A DNA stretch of 24,766 nucleotides, taken from assembly GCA_043812975.1 (NCBI GenBank), contig JBDRLP010000060.1, positions 1 through 24,766 on the forward strand. Direction: 5' to 3'. The position numbers and the translations under genes were made by a program. The notes beneath the pieces are model-generated. The model was not told the DNA's origin. It worked only from the letters and a program-made list of their open reading frames with translations, and made no database searches. The stretch's first letter is position 1. Each line of letters opens with the position of its first letter. Shown here piece after piece: positions 1,242 to 23,903 of the stretch. The DNA is from Candidatus Iainarchaeum sp. Lineage in GTDB: Archaea > Iainarchaeota > Iainarchaeia > Iainarchaeales > Iainarchaeaceae.

Positions 1242-1879
1242 TATCTATGTATAGTTTAATCTCAAAACTTTTAGTAACAGGAAAATTAAAATTTGAACCA
1301 GGTAAAATTACTGCTTTTAATGACCCATTTGCTTTAATTGATTTAGATTCTTTAAAAGCAATGACTGATGATGCTATTGTAGAAGGGGGTAACAGAATTT
1401 CAGATTTATATTTTTATGGGTGGGTATTTGGGTATAACACAACTAGAAATATGATTAGTTTGTTAAAACTTAAGAAATTTGAAGAACGTTATAAAATTTC
1501 AATGGACGTAATTGGTTTATTGGGTTTTGGAGATTATCAAACTATTAGCTTTCAACGCGCCAATCATGCAAAATTTAAAGTTATCGGGAATCCTTTTGCT
1601 TTATTATATCATCCTAGTAATTCATTGGTTTGTCATTATATTAGAGGTATGGAGGCAGGGGGTGGAACTCTAGTGCATGAATCTTTAATGGATAATATTG
1701 AAACTGAATGTGCTGCACAAAATGGAAATCACTGTGTTCACGCAAATTTAAATCAAGAAAAAATCGATGCGCTTGACAAAAAATTAGTATCTTCTCAGAT
1801 GAATCGAGAATATGTTAAAAAAAGGCAAAAAAAACTCATTGAAAGTCATGGCGATAATCCTTCTAGATTTGGGTTGTAG
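1238..1879 (+). CDS. V4R (4-vinyl reductase-like) ligand-binding domain protein
   Basis: GFGD motif plus CHYIRG...ETECAAQNGNHC cysteine pattern of V4R; GTGA overlap with the ATPase stop codon. Confidence 0.75.
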   Translation: MISMYSLISKLLVTGKLKFEPGKITAFNDPFALIDLDSLKAMTDDAIVEGGNRISDLYFYGWVFGYNTTRNMISLLKLKKFEERYKISMDVIGLLGFGDYQTISFQRANHAKFKVIGNPFALLYHPSNSLVCHYIRGMEAGGGTLVHESLMDNIETECAAQNGNHCVHANLNQEKIDALDKKLVSSQMNREYVKKRQKKLIESHGDNPSRFGL

Positions 1880-1907
1880 TAAAACGAATAATTGCTTGGT
1901 TTTACAT

Positions 1908-2810
1908 ATGGAAAAATTTTTTTCACAGGTTGCAAAGGAAAATTTTATTCTTAACTTACTGTTATTAGGGAGGCCATGGAACGGATTAATTATTGGGTTA
2001 TTTTCAATTATTGGTTTTTTATATTTTTCGCCTTTTAATCTAAATTTGATTTTGTCGTTATTTTTTGTTTTTTTTCTTCAATATTTTGGAGGCACTATAT
2101 TAAACGATTTAGCAGATTATTCTGCAGATAAAATTAATATGCCTTATAGGCCTTTGGAAAAAGGACTTGTAACTAAAAAGCAGGCTTTAATTTTAGCAAT
2201 TATTTCTTACTCAAGTAGTTTTTTGATTGCGTTTTTTACCTCGCAATATTTATTTGTTAGTTCTTTAGTTTTCTTCTTTTTTAGCATAATCTATTCAGTT
2301 AAACCTTTTAGATTAGTTAGTAGAGGTTTTTTTGGAAATTTTACTTTAGGTTTAGTTACTGTTTTTATCCCTTCTATTTCTGGAGCAATAATTGGATTGT
2401 CTAGTTTATTAGTTCCTGAGTGGTTTTTAATTTCATTTTTTGCATTTTCTCTTGTTTTTTCATTTTTGAGTATAGCTAAAGATTTTAAAGATATTAAAGG
2501 GGATCAAGAATCTAATAAATTAACTTTTACAATAAAACACGGGGTAAAAAAATCAATATTGGTGATGTTATTTGGAGCGTTAATTTTTTCTGTAATTTTT
2601 ATTTATTATAATCTTAAATTAGGAGTCTTTTTCATTTTTTCTTCATTTGTCTTTTTAGCTTTGGTTGTATATTTTAGTATAGGATTAATGAATGTTGGCA
2701 TTAATACAAATACTCAGAGATATGATGGGTTTTTCACAAATTTGAGAGTACTCATATTTTTTTATTCTTTAGTAATTTTAATTGTTTCATATCTTAAATT
2801 TATCCAATAA
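1908..2810 (+). CDS. UbiA-family prenyltransferase (DGGGP synthase/chlorophyll synthase-like motifs)
   Basis: NDLADYSADKINMPYRPL and KDFKDIKGD aspartate-rich motifs, multiple hydrophobic helices. Start moved to ATG 1908 to avoid a 68-bp overlap with the V4R gene. Confidence 0.88.
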   Translation: MEKFFSQVAKENFILNLLLLGRPWNGLIIGLFSIIGFLYFSPFNLNLILSLFFVFFLQYFGGTILNDLADYSADKINMPYRPLEKGLVTKKQALILAIISYSSSFLIAFFTSQYLFVSSLVFFFFSIIYSVKPFRLVSRGFFGNFTLGLVTVFIPSISGAIIGLSSLLVPEWFLISFFAFSLVFSFLSIAKDFKDIKGDQESNKLTFTIKHGVKKSILVMLFGALIFSVIFIYYNLKLGVFFIFSSFVFLALVVYFSIGLMNVGINTNTQRYDGFFTNLRVLIFFYSLVILIVSYLKFIQ

Positions 2811-2812
2811 GC

Positions 2813-3865
2813 GTGGTAATTATGGTAAAAATAAACTTTTCAAAATTGGAGCTTGGTTATGATGTAGTTGTGATTGGTGGCGGTGCTGCTGGTTGTTCAT
2901 TTCTTAGTAATATTTCCGATGAAAAATATAATGTTTTGTTAGTTGACTATCGCTCATTTCCTAGATTTAAAGCTTGTAGTGGGATTTTGGTTAATAACGC
3001 TAAAAAGTACTTTGATGGAATTAATATTCCTAGTTCAATTATGGCTAAACCAGTCGATTTACATTTAACTTATCAGGATTGGACTCATAATAAAGAGAAT
3101 AAAGTTGAGAAACATTTTGTAAATACTTATAGAAAAAAATTAGATGAATTGCTTTTTTCTGAAGTTAAAAAAAGAAATATTTCTATTTTGGAAGAAACAA
3201 AATTAATAGATTTTTTTTATACAAAAGATAAAAAGCACACTGTTGTTGTTTTAGAATCTAATGGGATGACCAAGTCAATCGTAACTAAGAATTTAATTGG
3301 TTGTGATGGGGCATTATCCCTTGTTAGAAAAAAAATATATCCAAGAAATATTCCTTATTATGTTGCAATGCAAGAAACAATCCCTGATCATAAAATTGAC
3401 CGGGCTTTTTTCATTTTTGATGAAGATATTACTGATTTTTATTGTTGGTTAATTCCTAAAGATGACGGAGTAGAAATAGGAGCTGCAGTTTCTCCATTTA
3501 AAGCAAGAGAAACATTCCAAAAATTTAAGAAAAAAGTAGCTGAAAAAACAGGAATAAAAGGAGACGGAAAAATAGAATCTGCAATAATATTGCGCCCTGA
3601 ATCATCTTCTGATTTTTTCTTAGGGGAAAATTCAGTTTTTCTTTGTGGAGAAGCAGCTGGTTTGATAAGTCCAAGTAGCGCTGAAGGGATAAGTTATGCT
3701 TTAATTAGCGGAAAATTATGTGCTGAAGCTTTAAACTCTGAAGAAAAAAATCCTATTGTAAGTTATAAGAAAAAATGTAAAACACTTCTTGATCGATTAA
3801 ATGAGAAACTCCTTAAATCTAAAAAAATTAGCCATTCTAAAAACAGAAAAACTCTTTTTTCATAA
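2813..3865 (+). CDS. FAD-dependent oxidoreductase, geranylgeranyl-reductase superfamily, CbrA(YidS)-like
   Basis: GGGAAG Rossmann motif, KACSG, GCDGALSLVR, YCWLIPK, GEAAGLISPSSAEGISYAL. ATG 2822 is an alternative start. Confidence 0.82.
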   Translation: MVIMVKINFSKLELGYDVVVIGGGAAGCSFLSNISDEKYNVLLVDYRSFPRFKACSGILVNNAKKYFDGINIPSSIMAKPVDLHLTYQDWTHNKENKVEKHFVNTYRKKLDELLFSEVKKRNISILEETKLIDFFYTKDKKHTVVVLESNGMTKSIVTKNLIGCDGALSLVRKKIYPRNIPYYVAMQETIPDHKIDRAFFIFDEDITDFYCWLIPKDDGVEIGAAVSPFKARETFQKFKKKVAEKTGIKGDGKIESAIILRPESSSDFFLGENSVFLCGEAAGLISPSSAEGISYALISGKLCAEALNSEEKNPIVSYKKKCKTLLDRLNEKLLKSKKISHSKNRKTLFS

Positions 3866-8978: not shown

Positions 8979-9004
8979 TTATAAATCAACTTTTTGGTTG
9001 ATTT
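8979..9004. promoter_or_regulatory. Palindrome AAATCAAC-TTTTTG-GTTGATTT overlapping the minus-strand TATA box of the regulator array
   Basis: 8-bp inverted repeat at 8983-9004; minus-strand TTTATAA at 8979-8985, about 30 bp upstream of ATG 8950. Confidence 0.65.
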
Positions 9005-9299: not shown

Positions 9300-9659
9300 A
9301 TGTATTTTTTCGACACTTACGCACTTATTGAACTCGTGAAGGGCAATCCAGTCTATGCAGATTACGCGGGCAAACCCATTTACACAAGCATCTTCAATTT
9401 GTACGAGTTCTTTTACTCTGTTTTGGCGGAGTTCGGCGAGAAAAAGGCTAGGAAGGAAACACAGAGCCTCAATGCCAATATTATTTCTTTGAATCTGAAG
9501 GACATTGCACAGGCTTCAAAATTCAGGTTTGAAAACAGGAAGAAAAAGCTTTCTTATGCTGGTGCACTAGGCTATGTACTGGCAAAAAGCAGGGATTTGG
9601 TATTTTTGACAGGCGACATGCAGTTCGAGAAAATGAAGAATGTGGAATACGTGAAATAA
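9300..9659 (+). CDS. vapC: PIN-domain toxin, one conserved Asp replaced by Gly
   Basis: FFDTYALIE, NLYE, LSYAGALGY (normally LSYADxxGY), LTGDMQF. Confidence 0.85.
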   Translation: MYFFDTYALIELVKGNPVYADYAGKPIYTSIFNLYEFFYSVLAEFGEKKARKETQSLNANIISLNLKDIAQASKFRFENRKKKLSYAGALGYVLAKSRDLVFLTGDMQFEKMKNVEYVK

Positions 9660-9699: not shown

Positions 9700-10056
9700 T
9701 TACGGCCTTTTTTTGCCTTTGAACCTTTTATCGTATTTTTTGTGTGTTTCTATTATAAGGATAAAACAAAATATTTCTATTTCGTGCCTTCTGATTGTGT
9801 AGAGCATCCTCCAGAATTTGGCCAGCCTGATTTTGAACAGGTTGTCCACATCCATGTCTTTAGGAATGTCCTTTTTCTTAACCACTTCTCCGTAAAGTGG
9901 GTCCTGTTTGAGTAGTTCCAGTTTTTCGTCTATTGATTTTAGGAGTGTCTGATTTTCAGAGCCCTTTATGCCTTTTGCTTTTTCCACTTTAACTATTTCT
10001 TTCAATTTTTCGTATTCTTCTCTGGCCTGGTCAATTAGCCTTATTCTTGCTTTCAC
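9700..10056 (-). CDS. RelE/HigB-like toxin (putative)
   Basis: Basic 118 aa; LKQDPLYGE...NLFKIRLAKFWRMLYTI...THKKYDK resembles the RelE fold; GTGA overlap with the upstream partner. Confidence 0.6.
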   Translation of the reverse strand: MKARIRLIDQAREEYEKLKEIVKVEKAKGIKGSENQTLLKSIDEKLELLKQDPLYGEVVKKKDIPKDMDVDNLFKIRLAKFWRMLYTIRRHEIEIFCFILIIETHKKYDKRFKGKKRP

Positions 10057-10322
10057 GCCTCGACACTTTCCTCTAAAAGTTTTCTCATTTTCTGAGGGGG
10101 CGTATACGTCCAGATTATTCCTTTTTTGGAGTCCAAAACCATTCCTCTTTGCCCCATGTATTCTATTATAATGTTGAGCGTGGGACGCATTATTTTGTTG
10201 TCCGACCTTTTGATTATTTCATATCTGCTTAAAGGCTCTCTGGCCTTTTTGAGTATTCCCTCAATCATGAGAACTGTTTTAAGTGTTGGATAATGCATAA
10301 CCTGATTTGTTCTTGAAACCAC
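10053..10322 (-). CDS. Small winged-helix protein, probable antitoxin or regulator
   Basis: YPTLKTVLMIEGILKKAREPLSRYEII...TLNIIIEYM..RGMV wHTH-like pattern; GGTGA upstream of GTG; coupled to the RelE-like gene. Confidence 0.6.
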   Translation of the reverse strand: MVSRTNQVMHYPTLKTVLMIEGILKKAREPLSRYEIIKRSDNKIMRPTLNIIIEYMGQRGMVLDSKKGIIWTYTPPQKMRKLLEESVEA

Positions 10323-10392: not shown

Positions 10393-13300
10393 TTAGGGGG
10401 CGTGGTTCAGCACTATTTGCACGTCCACTGCGGTTATGACTCCGTCCCCGTCCACGTCAGAGCATGGATTTGAAGCGTAAGGCTCTATTCCAAGGGCTGC
10501 TTTTGTAATGTAATCCACATCCGCGGAATCAACTATCAGGTCATTGTTAATGTCCCCGAGTACAGAACTGCAAATTGACTCGTTGGAGCAAACGCTACTG
10601 GTTTTCCCCGGATTGGTGCATGAATCCTCTGTTTTTGGGTTTGAATCATCACAATCCGCATCTGTGAGGCAGGCAATTGTTTCATGCAAGCAAGATGCAT
10701 GAGCGGTTCCGCCTTCAGCACATGAATCCAATGTATAATCATTGCTGTCTGCACAGTCAATGTCGTTCATGCAGGCTATTTTCTGGTGCAGGCACTGGGA
10801 AGACACTAGTCCGGGGTTTTCACAGTAATCAATCGTGTACTCGCTGGAATCAGCACAGTCCGCATTGCTTATGCATGCTATTGCCTCGTAGGAGCAGGTC
10901 GCATTCCTGCTTCCGGGTTCGATACATGAGTCATGTGAATAGGGGTCAGAGTCATCACAATCAAGGTCGCTGAAACAGGCAATGTCATAATAATTGCATA
11001 AAGATTCTGTTGTTCCCGGATTTGTGCAGGTATCTTCAGTTGCCGGGTTATTGTCGTTGCAGTCTGTGTTTGTGAAGCAAGCTATTTGAGAATACTGGCA
11101 GGATGAATTAACCGTGCCCGGATTTGCACAAGTGTCTTTTGTGTAATTGTTTCCATCATTGCAGTCTGTGTTGGTGTTGCAGGCAAATATTTCGTTCTGG
11201 CATACTGATTCAGGCGTGCCAGGGTTTATGCAGGAATCTATTGTGAAATCGTTGGCATCATTACATTCGTTGTCATTGAAGCAGATTATTGTTTTGTTTT
11301 CGCAGTAAGAGTCAGGTGTTACAGGGTTAATACAATTGTCCTGTGTGTAATTGTCTGCGTCGTCACAGTCAGTGTTGTTAAGGCAGGTGATTTGCTGATA
11401 ACTGCATTGTGATTCTGGTGTTCCGGGTTCTAGGCAGATATCTTCGGTATAATCGTTTGAGTCATCACAATCGGTATTAGTATAACAGGCAACAGGAAGA
11501 GGAGTTATCAAAATAATCCATGTTTGTTCATTGGATAATTTCCCGTCAGATAAAACCACTTTTACATCAAACTGGCCTGTTGTTCCGACAGAAGATGTAA
11601 AAGTGTAATTGTTCCCTGTTCCTGATTCAACACCATCCACAAACCACGTGTAGATTAAGTTATCTCCGTCAATATCTGTTCCTGTTGCGTTAAAATCCTG
11701 GTTTTCTCCTTCGGTTATTGAAGGATTAGTTTCAGGGATAAATTCAGTTATTTCAGGTGCTGAATTAATGTGCTCTATATTTAATGTAAAATTTTGGGTT
11801 GTTTCAAGCAAACCATCAGAAACAGTTATTGTAATAATGTGAGTTCCCGCAACAATTTTTGTCGGAGTAAATGAAATTAATCCTGTGTTTATATTAATAT
11901 CAAACAATTCTGTATCATCAGAAAAAGTTAGTTGGTCTTCTTCAAAATCAGTTGCATTAATCTGTAAGCTGAAAGGTTCGTTTGTAATAGTAAACTGTTC
12001 CCCTATTGTGTCAATAATTGGAGGATTATTTGTGTGCACATCAAACTCGTAACCTATTTGTGAAACTTCTATTATTCCTCCTGAAGCAGTAATGAATTTT
12101 ACCGGCACGAGTACATTGTTGTCTTCGGACGGCAAAGTTCCAAGGTAAGTGTTTATTGCATCAGTAATATCAAGTTCCTGATTAAATCCATTTGTTTGTG
12201 TGAAATTGAAAATTTCAGTGTCGCCAACTATTATTCTGGGGTTGTCCGGCATTCCGACATTACTGATACAAATTTCAGTAGAATATATTCTCGGGGTTTT
12301 TCCTTCGTGTGCTGTATTCAACACTGCTTTCCAGTTGAACTTGTCCCCTATTTGATTGATTGGAATTTCTATTGTTTGTCCTTTGGATATTGACTGCCAG
12401 TTTATTCCATCAGGAGTAATATAATAATCAATGTTCTGCCCCTGTAGATTTTCATTTGCTGAAAAAGAAATTGTTTTTGTTTTGAATGGGATTTCTCCAA
12501 GGTAAAGTTCTTTTCCTGTCTTAAATTGTTGCATGTATATTTTGTGTGCAGCCTGCATATTACCTATTCCTCCAAAATGCCCCATGATATTACTGTAACT
12601 TTGGTTGTTTACATTGAAGTTTATGGTTTGTTCTGTTGGTTCCCATGTACAAAAATCAGGAATTTTGTTATCACTCATTGGTTGTTTGAAACTGCTTCCA
12701 AACCATCCGCCTTGTACTTGACATTGGGATTTTAAATTATCTGTATAAGTCCATGGAGCTCCGCTACTGCATGCTGTGCTCATTTCAAATAACCATTCAG
12801 TATTATTGCAGTAAGCATTGATTTGTATTGCACTAGCTATTCCTCTGTGTTGCGGGGTAAAGTGGAAGGCTCCAAATCCTACTTGATCGGATGTTACGGT
12901 CATTTCAGTGGATAAGAACTGCGGTCCAAGTGGAAGCCCTATAAACTTTTGGTTCCCGTCCGCAAAAATGTATTTTTGCGTTGTAGACTTTGTCTGGTCG
13001 AATGTATTATATGCATTATAACATTGGGTTGTTTTTGTATCTCCTCTGATTTTTAAGTAGGCGTTTTGTACTATTGCTTTTCTTGGGATTTCTGTGTGAA
13101 GTGTCTGTTCTCCTGCTGTTTCAAATTTTAGCAATGCTTTATTTTCATTAGTGTCAAATGTTTCCTTGAAATCACATGAACCATAAGTTCGATTAACGTC
13201 CTGTGTTGAACAGTAAGCATAATAGGTTCCTGAATTTACACAAACAGGATTTATTTCTCTTGAAAATAAAACATTATTTTCACAAACCCTTGGTTCAACA

Positions 13301-16131
13301 CTGACAACATTTCCGCAGTCAAAATCAACAAAGCACTCTATTTTTGGAGCGCCTATTTCTATTGTAATATTTTTTTCTGTGTTTGTAATTCCATCATCAG
13401 CGGTTATGGTAATAATGTGTATTCCTTCATCCGCTTCTGTTGTCTGCCATTCTCTGCTTGTTGAAAACGGTTCACTGATTGTTGTTTCGAGGAAATCGTT
13501 GTCCGCATCCAGAATGGTGTAGTCCAGTGTTATTGTGTCATACGCATCTGCATAAATGTATGATGGTGCAATTATCTGTGGCGGATTGTTTCCTGAAAAA
13601 GAAATTTTTGATATTTTTGACTTGTTTTCATAACTTGTTTCCAATAATAATTCGTAGTTTGCGTTGTAATCGTCAAATCCTTCAAGAGTTATTTCTTGTT
13701 TTGAATTTCCTTTCGGAATGCTTTTGTCGAATTCATCATCGCTCAAGAATTCATTATCTTTCAATAAAATGTATTTTGACCCTGCTTCGAGGGTTTTTCC
13801 TTTGTTCTCAAAGTTTGCGTTTATGACTGTTGTTCCGCGTGCGGATTCATCAAAATCTCTTACTATTTCTTTTATTATTAGGTATGATTTTGCAGTATAG
13901 TTTGTTTTGTATCCGTTATCTTCTTGCGGATTGTTTTTGGCTATTTGTTCTGAAAATATTGTTATTTGATTTCCTGAACTTCTGTCGCCATCAATTAGTT
14001 TTATGTAGCTGTAGTTGCTTCCTGAAACGTTTCTTGAACTGTAATTAAAACCAGCTTCTGATTTCGAATAAATGTAAAAACCCAGGTTTTCCTTGTTCCA
14101 GTTTGTCAGAGTTGCATAACTCCACGGTTCTTCGTTTTTTCTCCATCTTATTTTGTTGTCGTCTACTTTTTCAAGTTCGATTGTATAGCCCATAGGGGTG
14201 AGGTAATGGGTATATCCTCCGTTGTATGATTCATATAATTCCTGGTATGAATCTGGGTGAATAATCAGTTTTATTGGAAGGTCGTTTATTGAGAATCTTT
14301 TTTCCGGCAGGCTTACAAATGAAAATGATGCTCCGCTGCTTTGGTCATAAGTGGTTTCTCCTGTAGCCCGTGCTTCAGTATTTATATACATTCCTCCTTC
14401 CCCTATACCAAAGTTTCCTTGTCCGGGTGTGCTCCCTGCCGAATTTGACAGATATGTCTCAACGTCCCATGTATCTCTTATATGGTCTGGAAACGGCGTG
14501 TAAAAATATTCTTTCGACCCATCAAATTCCAAATCAACTTTCAATATCTCCGCGTTCACTTTAAAATTTGTCCTAGTTTTTTCTTCCCCATTTTCCTCAA
14601 ACTCAACTTCATAATCGTAAAACCCTTCTTCTTTTCCGATTTGGAATGAAAGCAATTCTATTTTTTGGGAGCCGCCCTCAAGGCTTATTTGTTGTTCAAC
14701 TATTGTGTTGTTGTCTTTTATTCTGAGTGTTCCGCTTACATGGTTTGGCGTGATGTTTTCAATCAATATTTTTGGCTGTATCCAGTCGTTTGGAAAGTAT
14801 TCTGTTTCAGTTTTAACTTCTTTTATTAAAATTGGCGAATAAGGAGTATAATCAACTCCGATTTCGATATTTCGATATAATTTGAATATTCCCTGTGAAC
14901 AATCAACTATTTCTATTGGGTTGATTTGTATTACAATTTTTTCTTTATCTTCTGTGTAGAGTTGTGAGAACTCTGCTTTTGATTCTTTTGTGTTTTGCAC
15001 GCAGGTTCTTTTCACAAGGCCGTTGTCCCATTCCGGAATATTTGCTGTTATTGTAACAGGATTTGATTTGGAGGTTACATTCACTTCCCTTATTATTGTT
15101 CCAAGCGGGAATTCTATTTCTGTTGTTGCATAAGGAAGAATTTCTTTTGCAATTGAAAGTTCTTGTATCGTTCCGTTAATATCTATTATTTCAAATCCAT
15201 TTTCCTCTTCAATCGTATAATCAGAGAAGTCCATTAGTATTTGTTTTGCGTAAATTGTTTCTGTTCCCTGTGCCTTGAATCCAAGGGATTGGGCAAACGG
15301 GAACACATTGTATTCCGCGAGGTTTCCGCATACTTTTTCAAGTTCTTTTTGGGTCAAAGTTGTTCCTGTAATATCCAAATAGGGTGCTCCGTAAAGCGAA
15401 TAATCGCTTATTATTGCCTGTTGCCCTCCTGTTCCGAATTCCCTTAAATTGTTTCTTGCGTTTCTGAACCTGTCCCCAAGAGTTGAGAATTTGTAGTACT
15501 GGTTTGTGCCAAAATTACTGTCATTCAATGCTAAAGAACAAACAATCGATTTTAAGAGCGTTGAGTTTGCTTTTCCGTTTGTTGCTATTAAAGCCCCTGC
15601 TTTTCCGCTTAGTTGTGAGGAAAAACTCTGATTTTTTCCCATTGTGGGCAGATAAGTTCCTGCGTAATCTATATCTGTTATTACAAGATTTCCTCCTGAG
15701 ATTGTTTCATCTAGCTGTATTTCTTCCAGATATTTGCTTCTGGTTTGAATTTTGCTGTTTTCTATTTTTCCGCCTGTCTGCACTATGAGCATTTTGTCTG
15801 CCGGAATGTTTTCTATTTCACTGAATCTCCAGTTGCTTGTTGCTTGTGCGTTTGCCCCGTATGTTTTTTCTAGTACGCTTCTTATTTGTTCTTCTGTGCT
15901 TTGCAATGCTATTGGTTTTGAAAACAATGGCAATCCTAAGGATTTATCAGTGTAATAGTTTGCTCCGTTGATGCCAATTTCTGTGTATTCAAGTGCATCT
16001 TCTATTTCTTTCATCGAGTCTCCCTGAATCCTTCCAACAGCCGCGGTTTCAAAATCCATTGGCAAAGCCATTGTTATTGAAGAAATCATCAGCGCGAAAA
16101 GCGCAACCAAAATTGTTTTTTGTGTATTCAA
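10393..16131 (-). CDS. Giant secreted multidomain protein: degenerate C25-like region, C25-propeptide-like domain, Ig/cadherin-like domains, Cys repeats, C-terminal dockerin
   Basis: Signal peptide MNTQKTILVALFALMISSITMA; GAGGTGG before TTG; NNPP/NSAP...DxDxDxL Ig-like units; dockerin GDINNDLIVDSADV...DVDGDGVITAVDV. Confidence 0.85.
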   Translation of the reverse strand: MNTQKTILVALFALMISSITMALPMDFETAAVGRIQGDSMKEIEDALEYTEIGINGANYYTDKSLGLPLFSKPIALQSTEEQIRSVLEKTYGANAQATSNWRFSEIENIPADKMLIVQTGGKIENSKIQTRSKYLEEIQLDETISGGNLVITDIDYAGTYLPTMGKNQSFSSQLSGKAGALIATNGKANSTLLKSIVCSLALNDSNFGTNQYYKFSTLGDRFRNARNNLREFGTGGQQAIISDYSLYGAPYLDITGTTLTQKELEKVCGNLAEYNVFPFAQSLGFKAQGTETIYAKQILMDFSDYTIEEENGFEIIDINGTIQELSIAKEILPYATTEIEFPLGTIIREVNVTSKSNPVTITANIPEWDNGLVKRTCVQNTKESKAEFSQLYTEDKEKIVIQINPIEIVDCSQGIFKLYRNIEIGVDYTPYSPILIKEVKTETEYFPNDWIQPKILIENITPNHVSGTLRIKDNNTIVEQQISLEGGSQKIELLSFQIGKEEGFYDYEVEFEENGEEKTRTNFKVNAEILKVDLEFDGSKEYFYTPFPDHIRDTWDVETYLSNSAGSTPGQGNFGIGEGGMYINTEARATGETTYDQSSGASFSFVSLPEKRFSINDLPIKLIIHPDSYQELYESYNGGYTHYLTPMGYTIELEKVDDNKIRWRKNEEPWSYATLTNWNKENLGFYIYSKSEAGFNYSSRNVSGSNYSYIKLIDGDRSSGNQITIFSEQIAKNNPQEDNGYKTNYTAKSYLIIKEIVRDFDESARGTTVINANFENKGKTLEAGSKYILLKDNEFLSDDEFDKSIPKGNSKQEITLEGFDDYNANYELLLETSYENKSKISKISFSGNNPPQIIAPSYIYADAYDTITLDYTILDADNDFLETTISEPFSTSREWQTTEADEGIHIITITADDGITNTEKNITIEIGAPKIECFVDFDCGNVVSVEPRVCENNVLFSREINPVCVNSGTYYAYCSTQDVNRTYGSCDFKETFDTNENKALLKFETAGEQTLHTEIPRKAIVQNAYLKIRGDTKTTQCYNAYNTFDQTKSTTQKYIFADGNQKFIGLPLGPQFLSTEMTVTSDQVGFGAFHFTPQHRGIASAIQINAYCNNTEWLFEMSTACSSGAPWTYTDNLKSQCQVQGGWFGSSFKQPMSDNKIPDFCTWEPTEQTINFNVNNQSYSNIMGHFGGIGNMQAAHKIYMQQFKTGKELYLGEIPFKTKTISFSANENLQGQNIDYYITPDGINWQSISKGQTIEIPINQIGDKFNWKAVLNTAHEGKTPRIYSTEICISNVGMPDNPRIIVGDTEIFNFTQTNGFNQELDITDAINTYLGTLPSEDNNVLVPVKFITASGGIIEVSQIGYEFDVHTNNPPIIDTIGEQFTITNEPFSLQINATDFEEDQLTFSDDTELFDININTGLISFTPTKIVAGTHIITITVSDGLLETTQNFTLNIEHINSAPEITEFIPETNPSITEGENQDFNATGTDIDGDNLIYTWFVDGVESGTGNNYTFTSSVGTTGQFDVKVVLSDGKLSNEQTWIILITPLPVACYTNTDCDDSNDYTEDICLEPGTPESQCSYQQITCLNNTDCDDADNYTQDNCINPVTPDSYCENKTIICFNDNECNDANDFTIDSCINPGTPESVCQNEIFACNTNTDCNDGNNYTKDTCANPGTVNSSCQYSQIACFTNTDCNDNNPATEDTCTNPGTTESLCNYYDIACFSDLDCDDSDPYSHDSCIEPGSRNATCSYEAIACISNADCADSSEYTIDYCENPGLVSSQCLHQKIACMNDIDCADSNDYTLDSCAEGGTAHASCLHETIACLTDADCDDSNPKTEDSCTNPGKTSSVCSNESICSSVLGDINNDLIVDSADVDYITKAALGIEPYASNPCSDVDGDGVITAVDVQIVLNHAP
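10576..11493 (-). repeat. Nine tandem 34-aa (102-bp) Cys-rich coding repeats
   Basis: Consensus IACxxxxDCxDxNxYTxDxCxNPGTxxSxCxxxx, nine units counted from VACYTNTDC to SVCSNES. Confidence 0.9.
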
Positions 16132-16154
16132 GGTCCCACCTCAGATTTTAAAAA

Positions 16155-16649
16155 TTATTTATTGTAATCCTCCTTTGGTAGTTTTATAACGTAAGTTTTT
16201 GCTGCCTTGTCGTGTATGCCTTGTTTTTTTGAGTCAAAAATTATCCATAAGTGCACAAACTTGAACACAACCAAGAAAAATTCCTCTATTATCCATCGCA
16301 CTGTGGCATCTTTCCAACTCAGTTTTTTTCCGTTGGTCTTAACAACTTTCAAGTTCATCCACTTCTTGCCGTAAGTTTGTCCTGTTTTTTTGTAAAAATA
16401 AATAAAATACGCTTGAGTAAAAATCAGCCAAAGAATGACTACTATTGGCCATATGATTTCCCAAACATTTTCCGCTATTTCACCTATTTCTGGGTTGATG
16501 TTTTGTAATCCATTAACTATTCCTGCAAATGAGATTCCTAAAATGAAAAGTACTCCAAATACAATAATAAAATCCAGAGCAAGGGCAACTAGCCTTTCCA
16601 GAAACCCGCCGTATTTGGCTTGGGGTGTTTTTCCATTATTTTCATTCAT
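16155..16649 (-). CDS. RDD-family membrane protein
   Basis: YGGFLERLVALALD, GQTYGKKWMNLKVV, KKQGIHDKAAKTYV signature motifs. Confidence 0.92.
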   Translation of the reverse strand: MNENNGKTPQAKYGGFLERLVALALDFIIVFGVLFILGISFAGIVNGLQNINPEIGEIAENVWEIIWPIVVILWLIFTQAYFIYFYKKTGQTYGKKWMNLKVVKTNGKKLSWKDATVRWIIEEFFLVVFKFVHLWIIFDSKKQGIHDKAAKTYVIKLPKEDYNK

Positions 16650-16717
16650 TATTCTTCACACGCCTCAATTTCTTCAACAGTTATTCCATTATTTCCTTCA
16701 AGAATTTCTTTTTTCAT
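16649..16717 (-). CDS. 22-aa micro-ORF or internally deleted gene remnant
   Basis: MKKEILEGNNGITVEEIEACEE*; ATGA overlap with the upstream stop and TAATG overlap with the RDD start. Confidence 0.45.
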   Translation of the reverse strand: MKKEILEGNNGITVEEIEACEE

Positions 16718-17229
16718 TTTTTCACATCCTTTAAACCAGGAACATTTTTTGCTTCGAGGACTTCAATATCAACTAAGTATGCGCCTGCTCTCCAATCATC
16801 ACCATAAGGTGTACTAGCAGTTTCAATCCTCAATACATCTAAATCTTTGTTAATTGCAATTCTTCCAGTAATCTTCTGAGTATCGCCTTTGAATCTTTTA
16901 ACATACTCTTTTGCAGTGATTTTTTGAGTTGTGCCAAAGTCTATGTATTCATTTTCATTCAATACTTTATTTTGTATAAAATGTAATTTTATAGGAATAA
17001 TCTTGAAGCTCTTCTTCGTCCTTACATTAGTAAGGCTTTTTGAGAAGCGTTCTCCAGAGGGTGGTGGAGCATACTCGTATAATTCAATGTCATTGAAATA
17101 CTGAATTTTTCCAGTTAGTTTTATTTTGTACCGAGAGATTAAATTCATAAAACCTGATACGTTTCCATCTTTATCTATTTCAATTTTGAATTCTTTCAGA
17201 ACTTTATGCTTTCCTAATGAAATGGTCAT
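16714..17229 (-). CDS. Hypothetical soluble protein, candidate immunity protein
   Basis: 171 aa; starts 5 nt after the subtilase stop, with GGAGG upstream; no recognisable family. Confidence 0.65.
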   Translation of the reverse strand: MTISLGKHKVLKEFKIEIDKDGNVSGFMNLISRYKIKLTGKIQYFNDIELYEYAPPPSGERFSKSLTNVRTKKSFKIIPIKLHFIQNKVLNENEYIDFGTTQKITAKEYVKRFKGDTQKITGRIAINKDLDVLRIETASTPYGDDWRAGAYLVDIEVLEAKNVPGLKDVKK

Positions 17230-17234
17230 ATTTA

Positions 17235-20200
17235 TTACCTCCAGAAAACTTCCTTTGTAATTGTATCATATACTTTTATTTTAGATGTCCCTGGCATCTG
17301 GGGTAGTGCTTCTTGGATTGTAGACTCAATTTGGGTCTTTGTTAATTTTGTTCCCTTCTCTAGTTCAATCACTTGAATCCCTCCAGTGCCTAATGATTCA
17401 AATTTATTTTTTCTACTATCACTTAATAATTTCCCATATAAATTTTGTTCCGAAATTAACTCCCCTTCCATTTTTGTAGAATCAATCCAATAATCTTTTC
17501 CTCCTACTTTAATAAAATTGTCTGCATCTTTTCCGTCAGGTAAAAGCTTTTTAACTTCTACATTTTTTAATGTACCATCTGGATTAAGTTCTATTGCTTG
17601 TTTAACTAAGCTATCGTCAAATTCTCCACTTTTCTTCATTGCAATCATTATTGCATCGCCTTGTTCATCAGGGGATAGTTCAATATATTTGTGTAATCCT
17701 TTCTTTTCAACAGCACTCCAACTTTCTGCTCCAAGCCCTTTTACTGCTCTTCCTAGTGATTCAATATTTCTGAGTGGCATGTCTCCAAAGTCAGTTAGCA
17801 TTTTGAGTGTTGTTTCTAGTGTTGGTTTGCCTTGGCTTGTGAGGTGTATGAATGTTTTGGTTGATTCTACTGCGTCATCTGTTCTTTTTGCAATAAACTC
17901 TGCTGCGGTTCCGAGTAGATGTGGTGATTCTTCTATTGTTTTTAGTGCGGGTTTGAGTATTGGTTTTGGCACTAGTTTGCTTGCTTTTTTAAGTGAGACT
18001 TTGAATAGTGCCAGTCCGAAATCTACTCCTTCTCCTGGCACAAAGGACGCTCCAACGCTTAGGACTGCTGCTCCGTATGATGCTATGTCATAACCTGTTG
18101 CGACATGTATTATGCCACATACAAAGTGGTCTACTTCTGTTAGTGTAGATCCCTCTGTAATGTATTGCCAGACACACCTTCCTGAGTCAACTGCATCAGG
18201 AGCTAATTCAACTATTGGAATAACATTGCAGGTGATGTTTGTTGCGAATTCTGTTGCGTCCAAATCCTCGTCCAATCCAATGCATGCGGCCACGAAGTCG
18301 CCGAAGTTGTAGGCGTAGAATCTTTTGTCAACAATGTCCTGCCCTAATCTGTAAAGTGCGTCTTCTGGCATGGAGAGGCTTTCCTGTTTGATTATGAATG
18401 CGTATGATTTTTGCATTAGTATTGCATCGCCCCAGACATTTCTTCTAACCGAATAGTTTGCCATGCCTGTGTCGAAGAAGCGTTCGCAGCCAAGTGCATT
18501 GTTGTTCTCAAGCGTTCCAATCAAAATCAATGTTTTTCCAGCAAGTTTGTTGTTCAAAAATCCGGGTTCACAGGTTATTTCTGAAGATAAATATTCGTCT
18601 ATGCTGTTTACATTGTAGTTTGCTTGTATTTCTGTTTTGAGTGTGTTGATAATTGTTCTCAGTTTAGAGCCTTGCACAATATTATTCGGAATAACAAGTG
18701 CTACTCTCCGTTCCTCAAAAGTATTATCTGTTTCTCCAAATGAAGCGGTTGAATAAGTTGAGTATGCAATATCAGTAAAAATAGCAGGCGCTTCTTCGTT
18801 TCCAGCAATTGGAATCCTCGCTTGTGGCACAACATAATCATCTCCCACAATGAGTACGTGTTTGCAGTATTCGATTGGGCATCTTCCTTTGATGAAGCTG
18901 GAGATTTTTTGAACATAAGCATTAACTGTTCCTGTTGTTGGGTTTGAAAGTGTTTCTTTATAAGTACTCCAAACAGTAAAAGGAGAGCTACCAACCTCGT
19001 CCCTGTATTCACTTAAATCGTAAACCACTCCCTGGTTTTTGGAGGCTTTTAAATAAAGGGTTTGCATTAAAGCAGCAACCCTGGCTGGTTCCTCATAGCG
19101 TTGTTCGAGTTTTGAAGAATCGGTTACAATGATGGTTTGTGGTAATGACACGTTGATTGTTCTTGATGAAAAAGAATCAGGGGTGTTTACTTTGAAGTAA
19201 AAAGGTTTTTTTGGTGCTGAAGAACTGATTGTGAAATCACAATAATTGTTTCCGGGGGTTAGTGTTTTTGAGGTAAATGCAGTGCATTCAGTTCCTTCGA
19301 AAACTGATTCATCATACTCAAGGCTTACTGTTAAATCACTTGCCTGCCTGTTCACAAGATTAATTTGCAATTTATCTCCTCGTTGTTTGTAAACAGGCAA
19401 TCCCAGAGGAGATTCCTCAATTTCTATTGCAAACTGCTTCTGAGAACTGTCACAATAAGCAAGCCCTGAACCATTATCAACACAAATCCCTATTCCGCAG
19501 GATTCAAACTTAACCTTGTTTGAAAATGTTTCCCCGTCAAAATAACATGTTTCAACATTGCCTGTATTTGAATTGCAAGTGCTTTTTCCAAGCTCAGCAT
19601 CAGTGCAGGAATCATCTCCCGGATTAATACAGGCAGCATCCATGCACTCCTGATTTGGTGAACAAATGTTTTTCACAGGTGTTTCTGTTGTTGTTTCACA
19701 TGAACTCTGAACAGTTCCTTCGTTTAAGCAGGTTCTTGTTATTCTTTCCTGCATTACATTGCCATCAACTGCAGAACAATAAGGAGTATTTGTCCAGCCA
19801 GAATAACCGCAATCAGAATCATCATAACAGGTCACTGGATCAGGGTCACAGGTTCCTGTTTCCGCATTGCATATTTTATCCTCACAATCCTCTATTTTGG
19901 TTCCTTCATCAGAATCTATTGCTCCGGCACAATCACTTGAGTTTCCTGAACAGTACTGCTGGTCTGTAACAAGATAAACAGTTTTCCGTTTTGGCGAAGT
20001 GTTTGTTCCGCCCCTGCACTGGAAGAAAGTTCCTGTATTATTATTGCAAATGCTTGTGCTTGGCTTGAAAGTATTATAATTAAGGTTACAGCAAACCCCG
20101 GAAGCACATCCTTCTATTACTGTAAAAACATTGCTCTGTAAATACTCATTTTCAAACGGAGGAACTACACAAGAATAACTTGAGGAAGAATGACATGCAC

Positions 20201-22796
20201 CGTCATACAATTGTCCTGTGCATGAATCCCATGAGAATGCAGTTACATCATAATTCCCAATTGGTGCATCCGTTGGAACAATATAATCAAAGTAAACATC
20301 TTTCCCAACTGTTGACGGCTGCCAGTATTCCTGCGGGGCAGTATCACATGAATAAGAGTTGTTTTTTATGATTAAATTCCCGTGGTAAAAATCAGAATCA
20401 AATGCAATCGGGTTATTGTATTTTGCAATTAAGGTTATTGCTTTACCTTTTCCTATTTCCCCGTCAAGGTTTGTTCCTTCTGCCCTGACCTGAACAGGCC
20501 TTGAGATTTCTATTAAAAATTCTTTTTCTGGGTCAAAGCTTGTTGTTCCTTCAACAATCTCTAATTCTATTTGATGCGACAAAATGTAATCATTAATTGC
20601 TAAGAGGAGTTCTGCTGAATGTTTTCCTAATCCGAGTTGTTGTTGGTCAGCTGTGATAAATAAGTAAGACTCTGAATCAATGATGATTTCTTGTGGGTAA
20701 GAAACATGAAGCCATTCTTCAGTTATGTGGTCCCTTATTCTTGCTGTTTCTCCAGTGCTGTTAAAGAGCCTTATTTTTGCCTCGAACTTTTCATCATCCA
20801 GGCCGATTGTTACTATAGTAGGGTTTCTGGTTAGGGTTATTGTTTTTGGGTTAACCAAATCAATTTCCGCAAGAGCTTTATTGGCGTCTATTAAACCAAA
20901 CCCGTAAAGGTCATCTTTTCCTTTGACCCCTAAATCCAATGCACTTTTTGCCATTATGTTCCTTATTTCTCCAGGAGAAAGCAATGGGTTTTTTTCAAGC
21001 AATAATGCCGCTGTTCCTGATGCGAACGCAGCGCTCATTGATGTTCCGCTTTGTGTATTTGTTGAATCAAACAACCATGAACTTGTAATATTTTCTCCTG
21101 GTGCAACAAGATCCGGTTTTGCTCCATAATTTTGGATGTATCCTCTTGAAGAAAAACCTGAGTGTTTGTTTTGTTCATCCACAGAGCCTATTGTAAGCGC
21201 ATATTTTGAACTCCCTGGAAAAGTTAAACCAGTATACCCTTGGCATGAAGTGCTTGGTTGTTCATAACCACAGTTGCCGGAAGAAGTTACAATAAGAACG
21301 CCCATTGCTTCCGCTTCCATTATTGCTGTTTCGAGCGGTGAATTTTCAAAATCCCCTATTGCGCCGAAGCTCATATTGATTATGCGTGCTCCGTCGTTTG
21401 TTGAAATGTCATTATCCGGATTTAGAGCAAAATTTATCGCCGCTATTATTGAGGAAATGCTTCCTGAACCATTGCTGTTTAGTGCTTTTGCATTTATTAT
21501 TTTTGCATCAGGAGCAACTCCATTATAGTGTCCTCCATTACTCGTATTTCCGGATATTATTCCTGCTATGTGGGTTCCGTGACCGTGACCATCATCAGGG
21601 TTTCCTTCATCAGTGAAATCTGCTTTCGCGGAAATTTTCCCCGTGAGCATTGGGTTTGAATCATCAACCCCTGTATCAATTATCGCCACTCTAATGTTTC
21701 TTCCTGTAAAGCCAAGTTCTCTTGCATTTTGTGCTTTTACCTGAGGAATCGATTCGGTTAGAAGAATTTTTACTTTTTCATCCTTCACTATTCTTTTGGT
21801 TTCTGGAGCTGTTGCTAATTCAAATGCTTTATTTTCCGGCAGTTCAGCTACTACTATGTTTCCAATGTTTGCTGCAAATTTCACGGTTCCTCCGAGTGCT
21901 TTTATGTTGGCTGCTGTTTGAAGCAACTCTTCTTCACTTTGTGATTCTACTATTAATTGAGTTACGTTTGTGTTAGCTTCTGAGATTCCTGCTTTTACTT
22001 TGCCTGCGTTGTTTTGGGGTGACTTTGCTTGACTTAAAGACGGTGAAAGATTTCCTGTTTGGGCATCTGATGTGTCCACAAATGTTTGTGTACAGCCTAT
22101 ACAATTCTGTTCTATTTTTTCAAGTTTTTTCTGTAAAAATAATCCTAGTTTGCTTTTTCCTTTTCCGAAGAATTTTTCCTCCTCAGGAATTGGTTTTTTG
22201 GGTTCTTCCTGAACTGGCGGGTTAGGATTATTTGGTTCTTCATTTGGCGGTTCAGATTGAGGGTCTCCTCCAGAGGCGGAATTACTTGGTGAAGCATTAT
22301 CTGATCCACCAGATCCCCCTCCGCCCCCTCCTCCTCCGCAGGCTTTTTTCCAGTCCCTGCCGAGTTTCTGTGTGGTGAGTCTCATGTTGTAGCATTTTTC
22401 TGCTTTTGCTTTCAAAAAAGGATTCAGGTCATCAATGCATTTGCCGTACATCTGTCTCATTTCGGGGCAAGTTAGATTATTTGTTTTCTGTTGTGTTTGT
22501 CCTGTAACCGAATTTATAATTCTGTTTAAAGTGTTTGTCGATTTTTCTGTTTTAGGTATTTCGTAATTGTTCTCTTGATTTGAAATTTCTCTTGGTATTG
22601 CGTATTCCTCTTGGGAAAGATTTTCCTGTTGATCTGAATCTGCTGTGGGCAGGATTGTGAATCCAGTTATCTGTTCTATTGCAAAGCTTCCTATAAACAA
22701 GGTAACCAGTAACCCCAGTACTGCCAGAAGGCTGAGGGTTGTTATTAACCAGAATTTTTGCTTTTTTGTTCTGCCCGCTAGTTTTTTCAAGTTCAT
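17235..22796 (-). CDS. Membrane-anchored S8 subtilase megaprotein with Cys-rich region, C25-like N-subdomain and putative C-terminal toxin tip
   Basis: Triad IIDTG (Asp 21675-21677), HGTH (His 21579-21581), GTSM (Ser 21039-21041); N-terminal TM helix then ITGF; Gly/Pro linker. Start set at ATG 22796 (GGTGG upstream, TATA at 22836-22843). Confidence 0.88.
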   Translation of the reverse strand: MNLKKLAGRTKKQKFWLITTLSLLAVLGLLVTLFIGSFAIEQITGFTILPTADSDQQENLSQEEYAIPREISNQENNYEIPKTEKSTNTLNRIINSVTGQTQQKTNNLTCPEMRQMYGKCIDDLNPFLKAKAEKCYNMRLTTQKLGRDWKKACGGGGGGGGSGGSDNASPSNSASGGDPQSEPPNEEPNNPNPPVQEEPKKPIPEEEKFFGKGKSKLGLFLQKKLEKIEQNCIGCTQTFVDTSDAQTGNLSPSLSQAKSPQNNAGKVKAGISEANTNVTQLIVESQSEEELLQTAANIKALGGTVKFAANIGNIVVAELPENKAFELATAPETKRIVKDEKVKILLTESIPQVKAQNARELGFTGRNIRVAIIDTGVDDSNPMLTGKISAKADFTDEGNPDDGHGHGTHIAGIISGNTSNGGHYNGVAPDAKIINAKALNSNGSGSISSIIAAINFALNPDNDISTNDGARIINMSFGAIGDFENSPLETAIMEAEAMGVLIVTSSGNCGYEQPSTSCQGYTGLTFPGSSKYALTIGSVDEQNKHSGFSSRGYIQNYGAKPDLVAPGENITSSWLFDSTNTQSGTSMSAAFASGTAALLLEKNPLLSPGEIRNIMAKSALDLGVKGKDDLYGFGLIDANKALAEIDLVNPKTITLTRNPTIVTIGLDDEKFEAKIRLFNSTGETARIRDHITEEWLHVSYPQEIIIDSESYLFITADQQQLGLGKHSAELLLAINDYILSHQIELEIVEGTTSFDPEKEFLIEISRPVQVRAEGTNLDGEIGKGKAITLIAKYNNPIAFDSDFYHGNLIIKNNSYSCDTAPQEYWQPSTVGKDVYFDYIVPTDAPIGNYDVTAFSWDSCTGQLYDGACHSSSSYSCVVPPFENEYLQSNVFTVIEGCASGVCCNLNYNTFKPSTSICNNNTGTFFQCRGGTNTSPKRKTVYLVTDQQYCSGNSSDCAGAIDSDEGTKIEDCEDKICNAETGTCDPDPVTCYDDSDCGYSGWTNTPYCSAVDGNVMQERITRTCLNEGTVQSSCETTTETPVKNICSPNQECMDAACINPGDDSCTDAELGKSTCNSNTGNVETCYFDGETFSNKVKFESCGIGICVDNGSGLAYCDSSQKQFAIEIEESPLGLPVYKQRGDKLQINLVNRQASDLTVSLEYDESVFEGTECTAFTSKTLTPGNNYCDFTISSSAPKKPFYFKVNTPDSFSSRTINVSLPQTIIVTDSSKLEQRYEEPARVAALMQTLYLKASKNQGVVYDLSEYRDEVGSSPFTVWSTYKETLSNPTTGTVNAYVQKISSFIKGRCPIEYCKHVLIVGDDYVVPQARIPIAGNEEAPAIFTDIAYSTYSTASFGETDNTFEERRVALVIPNNIVQGSKLRTIINTLKTEIQANYNVNSIDEYLSSEITCEPGFLNNKLAGKTLILIGTLENNNALGCERFFDTGMANYSVRRNVWGDAILMQKSYAFIIKQESLSMPEDALYRLGQDIVDKRFYAYNFGDFVAACIGLDEDLDATEFATNITCNVIPIVELAPDAVDSGRCVWQYITEGSTLTEVDHFVCGIIHVATGYDIASYGAAVLSVGASFVPGEGVDFGLALFKVSLKKASKLVPKPILKPALKTIEESPHLLGTAAEFIAKRTDDAVESTKTFIHLTSQGKPTLETTLKMLTDFGDMPLRNIESLGRAVKGLGAESWSAVEKKGLHKYIELSPDEQGDAIMIAMKKSGEFDDSLVKQAIELNPDGTLKNVEVKKLLPDGKDADNFIKVGGKDYWIDSTKMEGELISEQNLYGKLLSDSRKNKFESLGTGGIQVIELEKGTKLTKTQIESTIQEALPQMPGTSKIKVYDTITKEVFWR

Positions 22797-22829
22797 TGGT
22801 TTCCCCACCAAAGTGAAATAATCCTGTTT

Positions 22830-22879
22830 CGAGTACTTATATACCTGCGGTTGATTGGGAATCAACTAAATGGTTGATT
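22830..22879 (-). promoter_or_regulatory. 50-bp promoter/operator cassette, copy A
   Basis: On +: CGAGTA..ATATACCTGCGGTTGATT-GGG-AATCAAC-TAAATG-GTTGATT; 44/50 identical to 23854-23903; contains minus-strand TATATAAG. Confidence 0.8.
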
Positions 22880-22882
22880 TTT

Positions 22883-23255
22883 TTATTTCACAAATTCTAC
22901 ATTTAGCAAACCGTAGAATTGTTTGTCGCCTGTGAGGAACTTTATTCCTAATTCTTTAGCCTGAATGTATCCTATGCAGTCGGTTATTGAGATTCTTTTT
23001 TCTGTTTTTATAGCGGAAATTCATTGCGTTTCTTATAATTTTAGAGTTGATTTGCATGGAAAACGGAGCATACTTATTAGTGTAAGTATACACTGTTTTT
23101 TTTCCTTGTGTTTTTAGGAGGCTGTAACAAAGTTCTGAAAGTATAAAATCATTAATGATTGGAGTTGCCGTGGTGAATTTTTTATAATTTGGATTTCCCT
23201 GCATAATTTCCATTATTGCATACGTATCAAATAGTAAAGTTTCCACAATAATCAT
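22883..23255 (-). pseudogene. vapC: Frameshifted PIN-domain toxin
   Basis: LLFDTYAIME...FRYKNRKK, then a shift in the A-run at about 22996-23001; the other frame continues ISITDCIGYIQAKELGIKFLTGDKQFYGLLNVEFVK* (TAA 22883-22885). Confidence 0.85.
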
Positions 23256-23853: not shown

Positions 23854-23903
23854 CGAGTATTAATATACCTGCGGTTGATTAACAATCAACCAAATGGTTG
23901 ATT
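23854..23903 (-). promoter_or_regulatory. 50-bp promoter/operator cassette, copy B
   Basis: Contains perfect AATCAACC-AAAT-GGTTGATT and minus-strand TATATTAA; 44/50 identical to copy A. Confidence 0.8.

Follow-up and report, generated by a model that had tools for sequence, protein, structure and literature searches.

What is the role of a peptidase C25 (gingipain)-like domain whose parts are encoded by two separate giant genes of an archaeon? The question is raised by contig JBDRLP010000060.1 of Candidatus Iainarchaeum sp. (assembly GCA_043812975.1), a complete contig of a 1.24-Mb genome that was analysed over its full length of 24,766 nucleotides (hereafter the window). On the minus strand, the window encodes a subtilase-bearing protein (protein A), a protein of 171 amino acids, a membrane protein of the RDD family and a second giant protein (protein B), in this order (Table 1). 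The C25 pieces of A and B are 2.7 kb apart, and two genes lie between them. The original prediction described a gingipain-like domain that is split between A and B and catalytically dead, and it proposed either a docking interface or the fission of an ancestral protein. As argued below, the locus is very likely a toxin system. We consider it likely, albeit far from assured, that it is a polymorphic toxin locus of DPANN archaea, in which the dead split C25 domain re-assembles outside the cell and couples the putative carrier A to B. Fission is the likely origin of the arrangement and docking its likely present role, and the two are not alternatives.

The expectation that Pfam would recognise the two pieces was not borne out. 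The families PF01364 and PF08126 gave no match above the cut-off in the source genome or in 44 scanned relatives, and searches of Pfam and of the PDB sequences revealed no C25 match for the B piece or for the A piece. Thus, the C25 assignment rests on structure. The model of B residues 22-435, which was built from an alignment of 73 rows, reached a predicted local distance difference test score (pLDDT) of 90. In a comparison with 48,161 chains, RgpB was the top match (Z score 14.4, root-mean-square deviation (rmsd) 4.0, 218 residues aligned), followed by Kgp (4rbm, Z 12.6). Superposition on RgpB 1cvr (Z 14.3, rmsd 3.7, 214 aligned) brings model residues 1-237 onto mature residues 100-350, and the Z score for 4ief is 14.7. 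Both chains align over 213-214 residues at an rmsd of 3.5-3.7, and the model has the caspase-like C-subdomain fold. On the catalytic domain of Kgp (4rbm), it covers chain positions 337-598. The second domain of B (model residues 257-408) superposes on the Kgp prodomain 5mun (Z 12.2, rmsd 3.0, 142 aligned), and Foldseek also relates it to the prodomains of 4ief and 5mun (E 1e-7). The reversed domain order, with a prodomain fold that follows the catalytic piece, was therefore correctly predicted. Moreover, the nearest neighbours of B in a protein language model are C25 and Propeptide_C25 clusters (0.92-0.94). The motifs quoted for B were all located, namely a signal-like segment at residues 1-22, AVGRIQGDSMKE (16041-16006), LIVQTGG (15789-15769), VITDIDYAG (15684-15658), GALIAT, TLGDRFRNAR and YSLYGAP (15402-15382). 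A stand-alone family of about 410 amino acids (P0118-P0150) combines a signal peptide, the prodomain-like domain of B, immunoglobulin (Ig)-like domains and a C-terminal membrane segment, and its members have no Pfam match.

The front piece on protein A could be traced by the quoted motifs TIIVTD (19136-19119), GVVYDL (19031-19014), ISSFIK (18905-18888), HVLIVGDDYVVP (18860-18825) and FTDIAY (18779-18762). In an alignment of 31 rows, the GDD-V-P residues and the D of the SD..Y-type motif are invariant. The model based on this alignment has a pLDDT of 85, and its residues 10-130 form the series strand-helix-helix-strand-helix-helix-strand followed by a hairpin. Among the 50 best rows of the structure comparison, gingipains are the only chains that reach the first 138 model residues; they start at mature residues 7-11 with Z scores of 5.5-6.8 and an rmsd of about 8, a high value because the adjoining domain is forced along. 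Foldseek with the A model returned no match at E 0.001, and gingipains are absent among the rows listed. Language-model neighbours of the piece include clusters named C25 (0.91 and 0.86). A profile of the piece matches 16 intact C25 proteins weakly (E 0.005, probability 7%), and HVLIVGDD falls on the GD strand of these proteins.

Where does the cut lie? According to the accessible part of PMC6426963, the N-subdomain of Kgp comprises D229-K375 and a four-stranded sheet. In the profile of intact C25 proteins, the VGR strand occupies Kgp chain index 115-120, and index 147 corresponds to K375, the end of the subdomain. Since the alignment of B starts at Kgp 337, strand 4 and the following helix belong to B and, by prediction, strands 1-3 to A. 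The assignment of strand 4 is backed by the fold alignment, that of strands 1-3 by motifs, the order of secondary structures and weak matches. Thus, the view that the N-subdomain resides on the subtilase protein holds for the predicted strands 1-3, but strand 4 and the helix are located on B; likewise, the domain is indeed divided between two genes, but the cut runs through the N-subdomain and not along the subdomain boundary. The sheet of RgpB has the order 6-5-7-8-9-10-4-3-1-2, as given in the available text of PMC4357240. By homology, strand 3 of A (HVLIVGDD) would be the neighbour of strand 4 of B (AVGRI), and from this adjacency follows the docking model, in which a sheet is completed across two chains. 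Strand 4 at the N-terminus of B is therefore proposed as a candidate docking edge. Its residues are strongly conserved: E is present in 108 of 110 relatives, and R and G are each present in 111 of 112. The Arg is also invariant in intact C25 proteins. Both sides of the predicted contact are conserved despite the loss of catalysis (R in B, G-D-D-V-P and D in A).

The split point is conserved, as had been suggested as a check. A profile derived from nine B N-termini identified 190 clusters at E 0.001 and 103 at E 1e-30. Of the best 150 relatives, 112 cover the start of the domain, and 111 of these begin by residue 48, with the GR strand as their common starting motif; the sole exception resembles an over-long start call. 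No fused homologue was found among the best 150 of the 190 matches (the 40 weakest lie outside this set), and none of these proteins carries the front piece. The 30 clusters that were looked up include B relatives from Micrarchaeota, Aenigmarchaeota, Woesearchaeota, Nanoarchaeia and Nanoarchaeota, and one is labelled Patescibacteria group bacterium. The A-type proteins are assigned to Diapherotrites, Micrarchaeota, Nanoarchaeia and Aenigmarchaeota. A recent breakage is excluded because several DPANN phyla have the split at the same point. We regard it as very likely that the two pieces are homologous to the two parts of a C25 domain.

The claim of catalytic death also proved correct. The alignment of B to the profile of intact C25 proteins (E 0.0016, probability 16%) was used for the register, and it places G120 and D155 of B at the positions of the catalytic His and Cys, respectively. 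Across 122 relatives (125 aligned domains), none has a Cys in the nucleophile stretch. The His column contains His in 9 of 118 relatives; six of these still have HG, which supports the register. In the intact C25 proteins of Iainarchaeota, both residues are kept in 16 of 16 cases. As far as can be judged from the sequence, the split unit is not a protease since a Cys at the nucleophile position is found in none of the aligned relatives. Two invariant Cys residues of B (segment positions 177 and 247) were considered as an alternative nucleophile and rejected; they belong to helices that lie apart from the aligned positions of the dyad, and a disulfide between them is more probable.

The two halves also occur together. 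Among 215 Iainarchaeota genomes, each half was detected in nine, both in eight and either in ten. In the genome with A only, the carrier runs off the contig. A precedes B on one contig and on the same strand in four of the eight genomes with both halves, and in the other four the upstream side of B reaches the contig end within 2.2 kb. In Micrarchaeota, A and B of one pair are two accession numbers apart and come from contigs of equal size, a neighbourhood judged from these data. For a Woesearchaeota-cluster pair, the contigs of A and B have the same length of 124,508 bases (one of ten candidate B proteins could be matched in this way); shared repeats yielded no pairing of A and B proteins from other phyla. 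Within the family, 6-7 of the 22 other genomes contain the system, and within the genus none of five does, all counted in incomplete genomes; such a patchy distribution is typical of conflict systems. Of the 215 genomes, 20 contain continuous C25-like giants with His and Cys (L068-L087), mostly as partial Pfam matches. These genomes were rejected as members of the split system as their proteins are continuous and distant.

What marks the locus as a probable toxin system is the C-terminal end of protein A. Carriers are alike in the subtilase, the stalk and the C25 piece, and their ends differ. The tail encoded in the window is shared with the carrier of G106 (41% identity) and with one stand-alone gene (26%); other carriers have different tails. 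The carriers P0179 and that of G103 are about 100% identical over some 1,440 residues and then only 18-30%, which is either a tail swap or an assembly mosaic. When 15 tail-bearing genes, 14 of them with a downstream gene, were compared, the downstream genes were homologous in all six strong tail pairs (E <1e-15) and not homologous in five weaker pairs, and downstream genes never matched without a tail match. The gene of 171 amino acids, which begins 5 nt past the stop of protein A, recurs together with the window's tail at two other loci. Searches of 14 tails against Pfam and the PDB gave no match. By its motif, the tail of the window resembles nucleases of the restriction-endonuclease type in a degenerate form; other tails are presumably PD-(D/E)xK nuclease-, R-S-E ADP-ribosyltransferase-, HExxH metallopeptidase-, kinase- and RNase-like, again by motifs. 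The pre-toxin region in front of the tail is 45-49% identical to those of the carriers of G099, G105 and G106 and has no match in the carriers of G093, G098 and G103.

Relatives of the locus harbour six short genes, in which a hydrophobic N-terminus directly precedes a truncated C25 piece. The piece begins at strand 2 in two and past strand 2 in four of them, and strand 1 is lost in all. Nevertheless, all six retain strand 3 together with the residues that lead from it to the break, that is, the parts adjoining strand 4 of B, and they are 69-76% identical to their own carrier in the C25 piece. In the source genome, no short stand-alone toxin gene was found (one match only). In two other genomes, a second set of related genes with signal peptides (330-360 amino acids) is located behind the short toxin genes (L028:2669-4754, L034:3447-4529 and L027:2902-3243); one copy is interrupted by an insertion sequence, and the set is possibly a further class of cargo.

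A palindrome, AATCAAC-N6-GTTGATT, lies a short distance upstream of the probable start of A. With a spacer of 6, five exact copies occur in the source genome versus two sites for the remaining spacers of 2 to 11 taken together, and none occurs in 253 kb of control loci. The palindrome is also found 69-92 bp upstream of two other carriers and, with 0 or 1 mismatch in the 12-base core, 55-73 bp upstream of three of the six short genes; two of the remaining short genes belong to a toxin array, and the third is without a site. Owing to their own palindromes, some short genes are probably expressed alone and would then need a partner such as B, which suggests that they are not only silent spares. 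The palindrome is present in 15 of the family's 23 genomes, and the reversed control in one. In G109, G104, G096, G106, G095 and G111, it is situated just upstream of the first gene for a winged-helix-like regulator, and also of toxin genes. These sites suggest one regulon, whose binder is probably a winged-helix-like protein. The six-gene array in the window comprises the only copies in the source genome, and the family flanks the toxin locus in G093, G096, G099 and G106. The array was tested as a system-specific element and dismissed as such, the family being present in 127 of 215 Iainarchaeota genomes.

The following mechanism would accommodate these results. Two distinct genes encode A and B, each protein starts with a hydrophobic stretch, and the split point is conserved. 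Relatives exchange the tail of A along with the gene behind it. According to the models, B contributes strand 4, a helix, strands 5-10 and the prodomain fold, and A contributes strands 1-3; the sheet of B would be left open at strand 4, and strand 3 of A would complete it (gingipain sheet order ...10-4-3-1-2). With its Ig-like domains, Cys-rich repeats and dockerin-like end, B may tether or present the complex, and the products of the short toxin genes, which have a signal peptide of their own, may load onto the same edge of B. The subtilase of A, whose catalytic residues are intact, is a candidate for the protease that would release the tail at the target cell, and protection of the producer and its kin would fall to the small protein encoded downstream. 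Docking fits because of the co-occurrence of the halves, the gene order and the parts retained by the short toxin genes, and we consider it a fairly probable present function of the halves.

Several observations weigh against this mechanism. The model of B on its own is confident (pLDDT 90), and the alignments with CHAT and separase chains start at its residues 1-7, so that the B unit may be stable without a partner. The homology on the A side is moderate in view of the profile probability of 7% and the Z scores of 5.5-6.8 at an rmsd of about 8. Short genes without strands 1 and 2 may not fold as a C25 piece, and the segment that they keep may be a recombination anchor, where P0179 appears mosaic. 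Furthermore, the carrier of L035 and P0181 lack the S-layer-like domain, the carriers P0180, P0211 and P0212 have no Pfam subtilase match, and none of the tails and downstream genes falls into a known toxin or immunity family. Finally, the genome with B only is 75% complete, G096 has short genes only, and the related genomes in the co-occurrence counts are not independent.

The first of these points lead to a different explanation, in which the fission is ancient and the halves no longer touch. A toxin-immunity module would have inserted into a giant C25 protein, in the loop that joins strands 3 and 4, leaving the A piece as a structural pre-toxin domain and recombination anchor and B as an independent pseudo-protease adhesin that stays nearby by operon history. 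This would explain that the B unit folds alone with the extent of the CHAT and separase cores, and that the short genes are cut within the C25 piece and are near-identical to the carrier there (69-76%), like recombination arms. However, the first strand of B lies at a free N-terminus, and its E, R and G are nevertheless conserved to 98-99% in a set of over 100 clusters. Moreover, A retains the C25 signature, the pair is found together in three phyla, and the short genes have signal-like N-termini and in some cases a palindrome of their own. Hence, we rate a fission without contact as rather unlikely. An artefact, i.e. a broken gene or a chance resemblance of motifs, could be invoked as neither piece has a Pfam C25 match, but the pieces are separated by two complete genes, B comes with a signal peptide and a ribosome-binding site of its own, the split recurs in more than 100 clusters, the fold match tops 48,161 chains and both halves are present in eight genomes. 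This explanation can practically be dismissed.

If the halves do bind, B might still serve another purpose, either as a trap that captures any incoming toxin bearing this front piece and thereby broadly protects kin or as a chaperone that holds the cell's own toxin inactive. B is constant while the toxins vary, the prodomain fold is the inhibitor in gingipains (accessible part of PMC4357240), and 190 clusters of B stand against about 30 A-type proteins, numbers from searches of unequal sensitivity. Yet every tail already has a co-varying downstream gene, B is encoded downstream of A in the same direction and apparently under one promoter, and the varied adhesin-type ends of B relatives suit targeting. 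Such a trap or chaperone is accordingly regarded as improbable. It is more improbable still that the tails are variable effector or recognition domains of a self/non-self or host-recognition device that uses the same docking. No tail has a family match, the nuclease-like motif of the window's tail is degenerate, and A has a domain resembling an S-layer anchor, all of which would suit such a device. On the other hand, tails of unrelated enzyme-like types (assigned by motifs only) replace one another, and the tail strictly co-varies with the next gene; taken together, this is the pattern by which polymorphic toxins are defined, as stated in the available part of PMC3482391. The docking of A onto B thus remains the preferred reading.

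How does the locus compare with known systems? With the gingipains RgpB and Kgp of family C25 (1CVR, 4IEF, 4RBM and 5MUN), it shares the predicted caspase-like fold, the motifs of the N-subdomain and the prodomain fold. Unlike in gingipains, the domain is distributed over two genes, lacks the His-Cys dyad, has the prodomain after the catalytic piece and does not score with Pfam C25. As an enzyme, the split unit falls outside peptidase family C25 because it differs in the dyad, the continuity of the chain and the position of the prodomain. The intact C25-like proteins of Iainarchaeota belong to the same phylum and are also secreted giants with the motif series GD..IP, D..YY, VGR, HG, C and GDP, but they are continuous, catalytically complete and distant, and the front piece has no profile match to them at E 0.01. 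Judged by its predicted proteins, the locus combines a multi-domain secreted carrier and a co-varying adjacent putative immunity gene with, in relatives, stand-alone cassettes. It shares with the polymorphic toxin systems described in the accessible part of PMC3482391 the secreted carrier with a variable C-terminal domain, the co-varying downstream gene, the stand-alone toxin genes and a peptidase in the carrier, for which subtilisin is named there in Sec-dependent toxins. That part calls these systems rare in archaea and mentions C25 not at all and gingipain once. In contrast to these systems, the locus encodes a second giant protein with the complementary half-domain, and the stand-alone genes have signal-like N-termini. 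The S8-PTS, the subtilase-associated polymorphic toxin systems of Gram-positive bacteria (PMC9424270, as far as accessible), also have an S8 peptidase, a toxin of polymorphic type and an immunity gene per locus as well as Sec-type signal peptides. However, S8 is a separate gene there and the toxins contain a BetaH domain, whereas S8 is fused into A and most full-length carriers and is not a separate operonic gene, and the constant element is the split C25 domain. The two domains that were modelled here match folds other than BetaH. The locus is thus not an S8-PTS, and C25, gingipain and caspase are not mentioned in the available portion of that paper. Archaeal colicin D and PD-DExK loci appear without C25 or subtilase in the accessible part of PMC6393860. 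A literature search found no split C25 toxin system and no such polymorphic toxins of DPANN archaea; the main archaeal survey (Makarova et al. 2019 mBio) was outside its coverage.

DPANN archaea are mostly uncultured symbionts. A polymorphic toxin system in four DPANN lineages would provide concrete putative toxin-immunity pairs, with a bearing on how these archaea compete or act on hosts. If the docking model is true, a pseudo-protease that is split in nature and serves as a coupling tag would represent a new principle of toxin delivery and possibly a natural protein-coupling pair. The system is invisible to routine annotation because the split halves escape Pfam, and the two profiles built here detect it. 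In a wider and more tentative version, to which we give slightly less than even credence, a plug and socket would be in use across DPANN archaea: the open beta-sheet edge of a surface giant would load any secreted effector having the three-strand tag or the strand-3 core. This would equip reduced archaea with interchangeable weapons for use on kin, hosts or prey, controlled by one common regulator.

Table 1 Features of the locus and its surroundings in the window (strand -, minus;., palindromic; aa, amino acids)
Feature	Position	Strand	Basis and remarks
Protein A, toxin carrier, 1876 aa from TTG	17235..22865	-	Gene call, Pfam and motifs; order: N-terminal hydrophobic segment, subtilase, Cys-rich and Ig-like stalk, C25 front piece, S-layer-anchor-like domain, pre-toxin region, variable tail
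S8 subtilase domain of A, intact D397, H429, S609	20895..21704	-	PF00082, E 9e-54, and motifs
C25 front piece, A1243-1370	18756..19139	-	Predicted strands 1-3 of the gingipain N-subdomain; motifs, models
Domain past the break, A1373-1512	18330..18749	-	9fsa, Z 9.3, rmsd 3.2, 123 aligned
Pre-toxin region, Cys- and Gly/Ala-rich	17766..18308	-	Common to subsets of carriers
Variable C-terminal tail, putative toxin	17235..17768	-	Differs among carriers
Putative immunity protein, 171 aa	16714..17229	-	Homologues behind both other copies of the same tail
RDD-family membrane protein	16155..16649	-	PF06271, E 4e-27
Protein B, 1912 aa	10393..16131	-	Order: signal peptide, dead C25 back piece, prodomain-like domain, Ig/PKD domains, Cys-rich repeats, dockerin-like end
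C25 back piece, B23-259	15355..16065	-	Structure match
Strand 4 and helix of the gingipain N-subdomain (ETAAVGRIQG...)	15988..16050	-	Maps to Kgp 337-375
His position of B (G120)	15772-15774	-	Profile alignment to intact C25
Cys position of B (D155)	15667-15669	-	Profile alignment to intact C25
Gingipain-prodomain-like domain, C-terminal to the dead catalytic piece	14845..15300	-	5mun, Z 12.2, and Foldseek
Ig-like and PKD domains of B	11527..12030	-	Big_9, He_PIG, PKD, E 1e-4 to 2e-3, under cut-off
Cys-rich tandem repeats of B	10573..11487	-	37 Cys in residues 1540-1855
Dockerin-like C-terminus of B	10405..10560	-	PF00404, E 7e-6, over cut-off
Palindrome AATCAAC-N6-GTTGATT, putative operator	22860..22879	.	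Upstream of the probable start of A
Further palindrome sites	8984-9003, 23884-23903		Also C36:12884 and C41:45470 of the source genome
Array of six paralogous winged-helix-like regulators, about 280 aa	3907-8950	-	No Pfam family above cut-off

Some features of the two giant proteins deserve a brief comment. The probable start of A is the ATG at 22796, which is preceded by a TATA-like box and by GGTGGGG as a ribosome-binding site, and the TTG at 22865 is disfavoured because it falls within the palindrome. The best fold for the domain past the break of A is the cell-wall anchoring domain of the S-layer protein of Methanococcus voltae (9fsa), with which BcsB and GH115 domains tie within 1 Z. The dockerin-like end of B is a possible surface tether, and a search with PF00963 detected no cohesin for it in the source genome. 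The Cys-rich repeats of B are also present in other secreted proteins of this genome (C31:3023-8502 and C36:11051-12241), the latter of which has the dockerin-like end as well. The RDD gene occupies a slot between A and B that is taken by other genes in relatives.

Two PIN-like genes (9300-9659, plus strand, and 22881-23255, minus strand) bracket the toxin locus in inverted orientation, and the pair has arms of 53 nt that are 72% complementary. The gene at 22881-23255 is apparently frameshifted near its 3' end, the PIN-like coding sequence running beyond the stop of the open reading frame. A RelE/ParE-like pair is located at 9700-10322. Genes for a KaiC-like ATPase, a V4R-like protein, a UbiA prenyltransferase and an FAD oxidoreductase form one apparent operon on the plus strand (468-3865).

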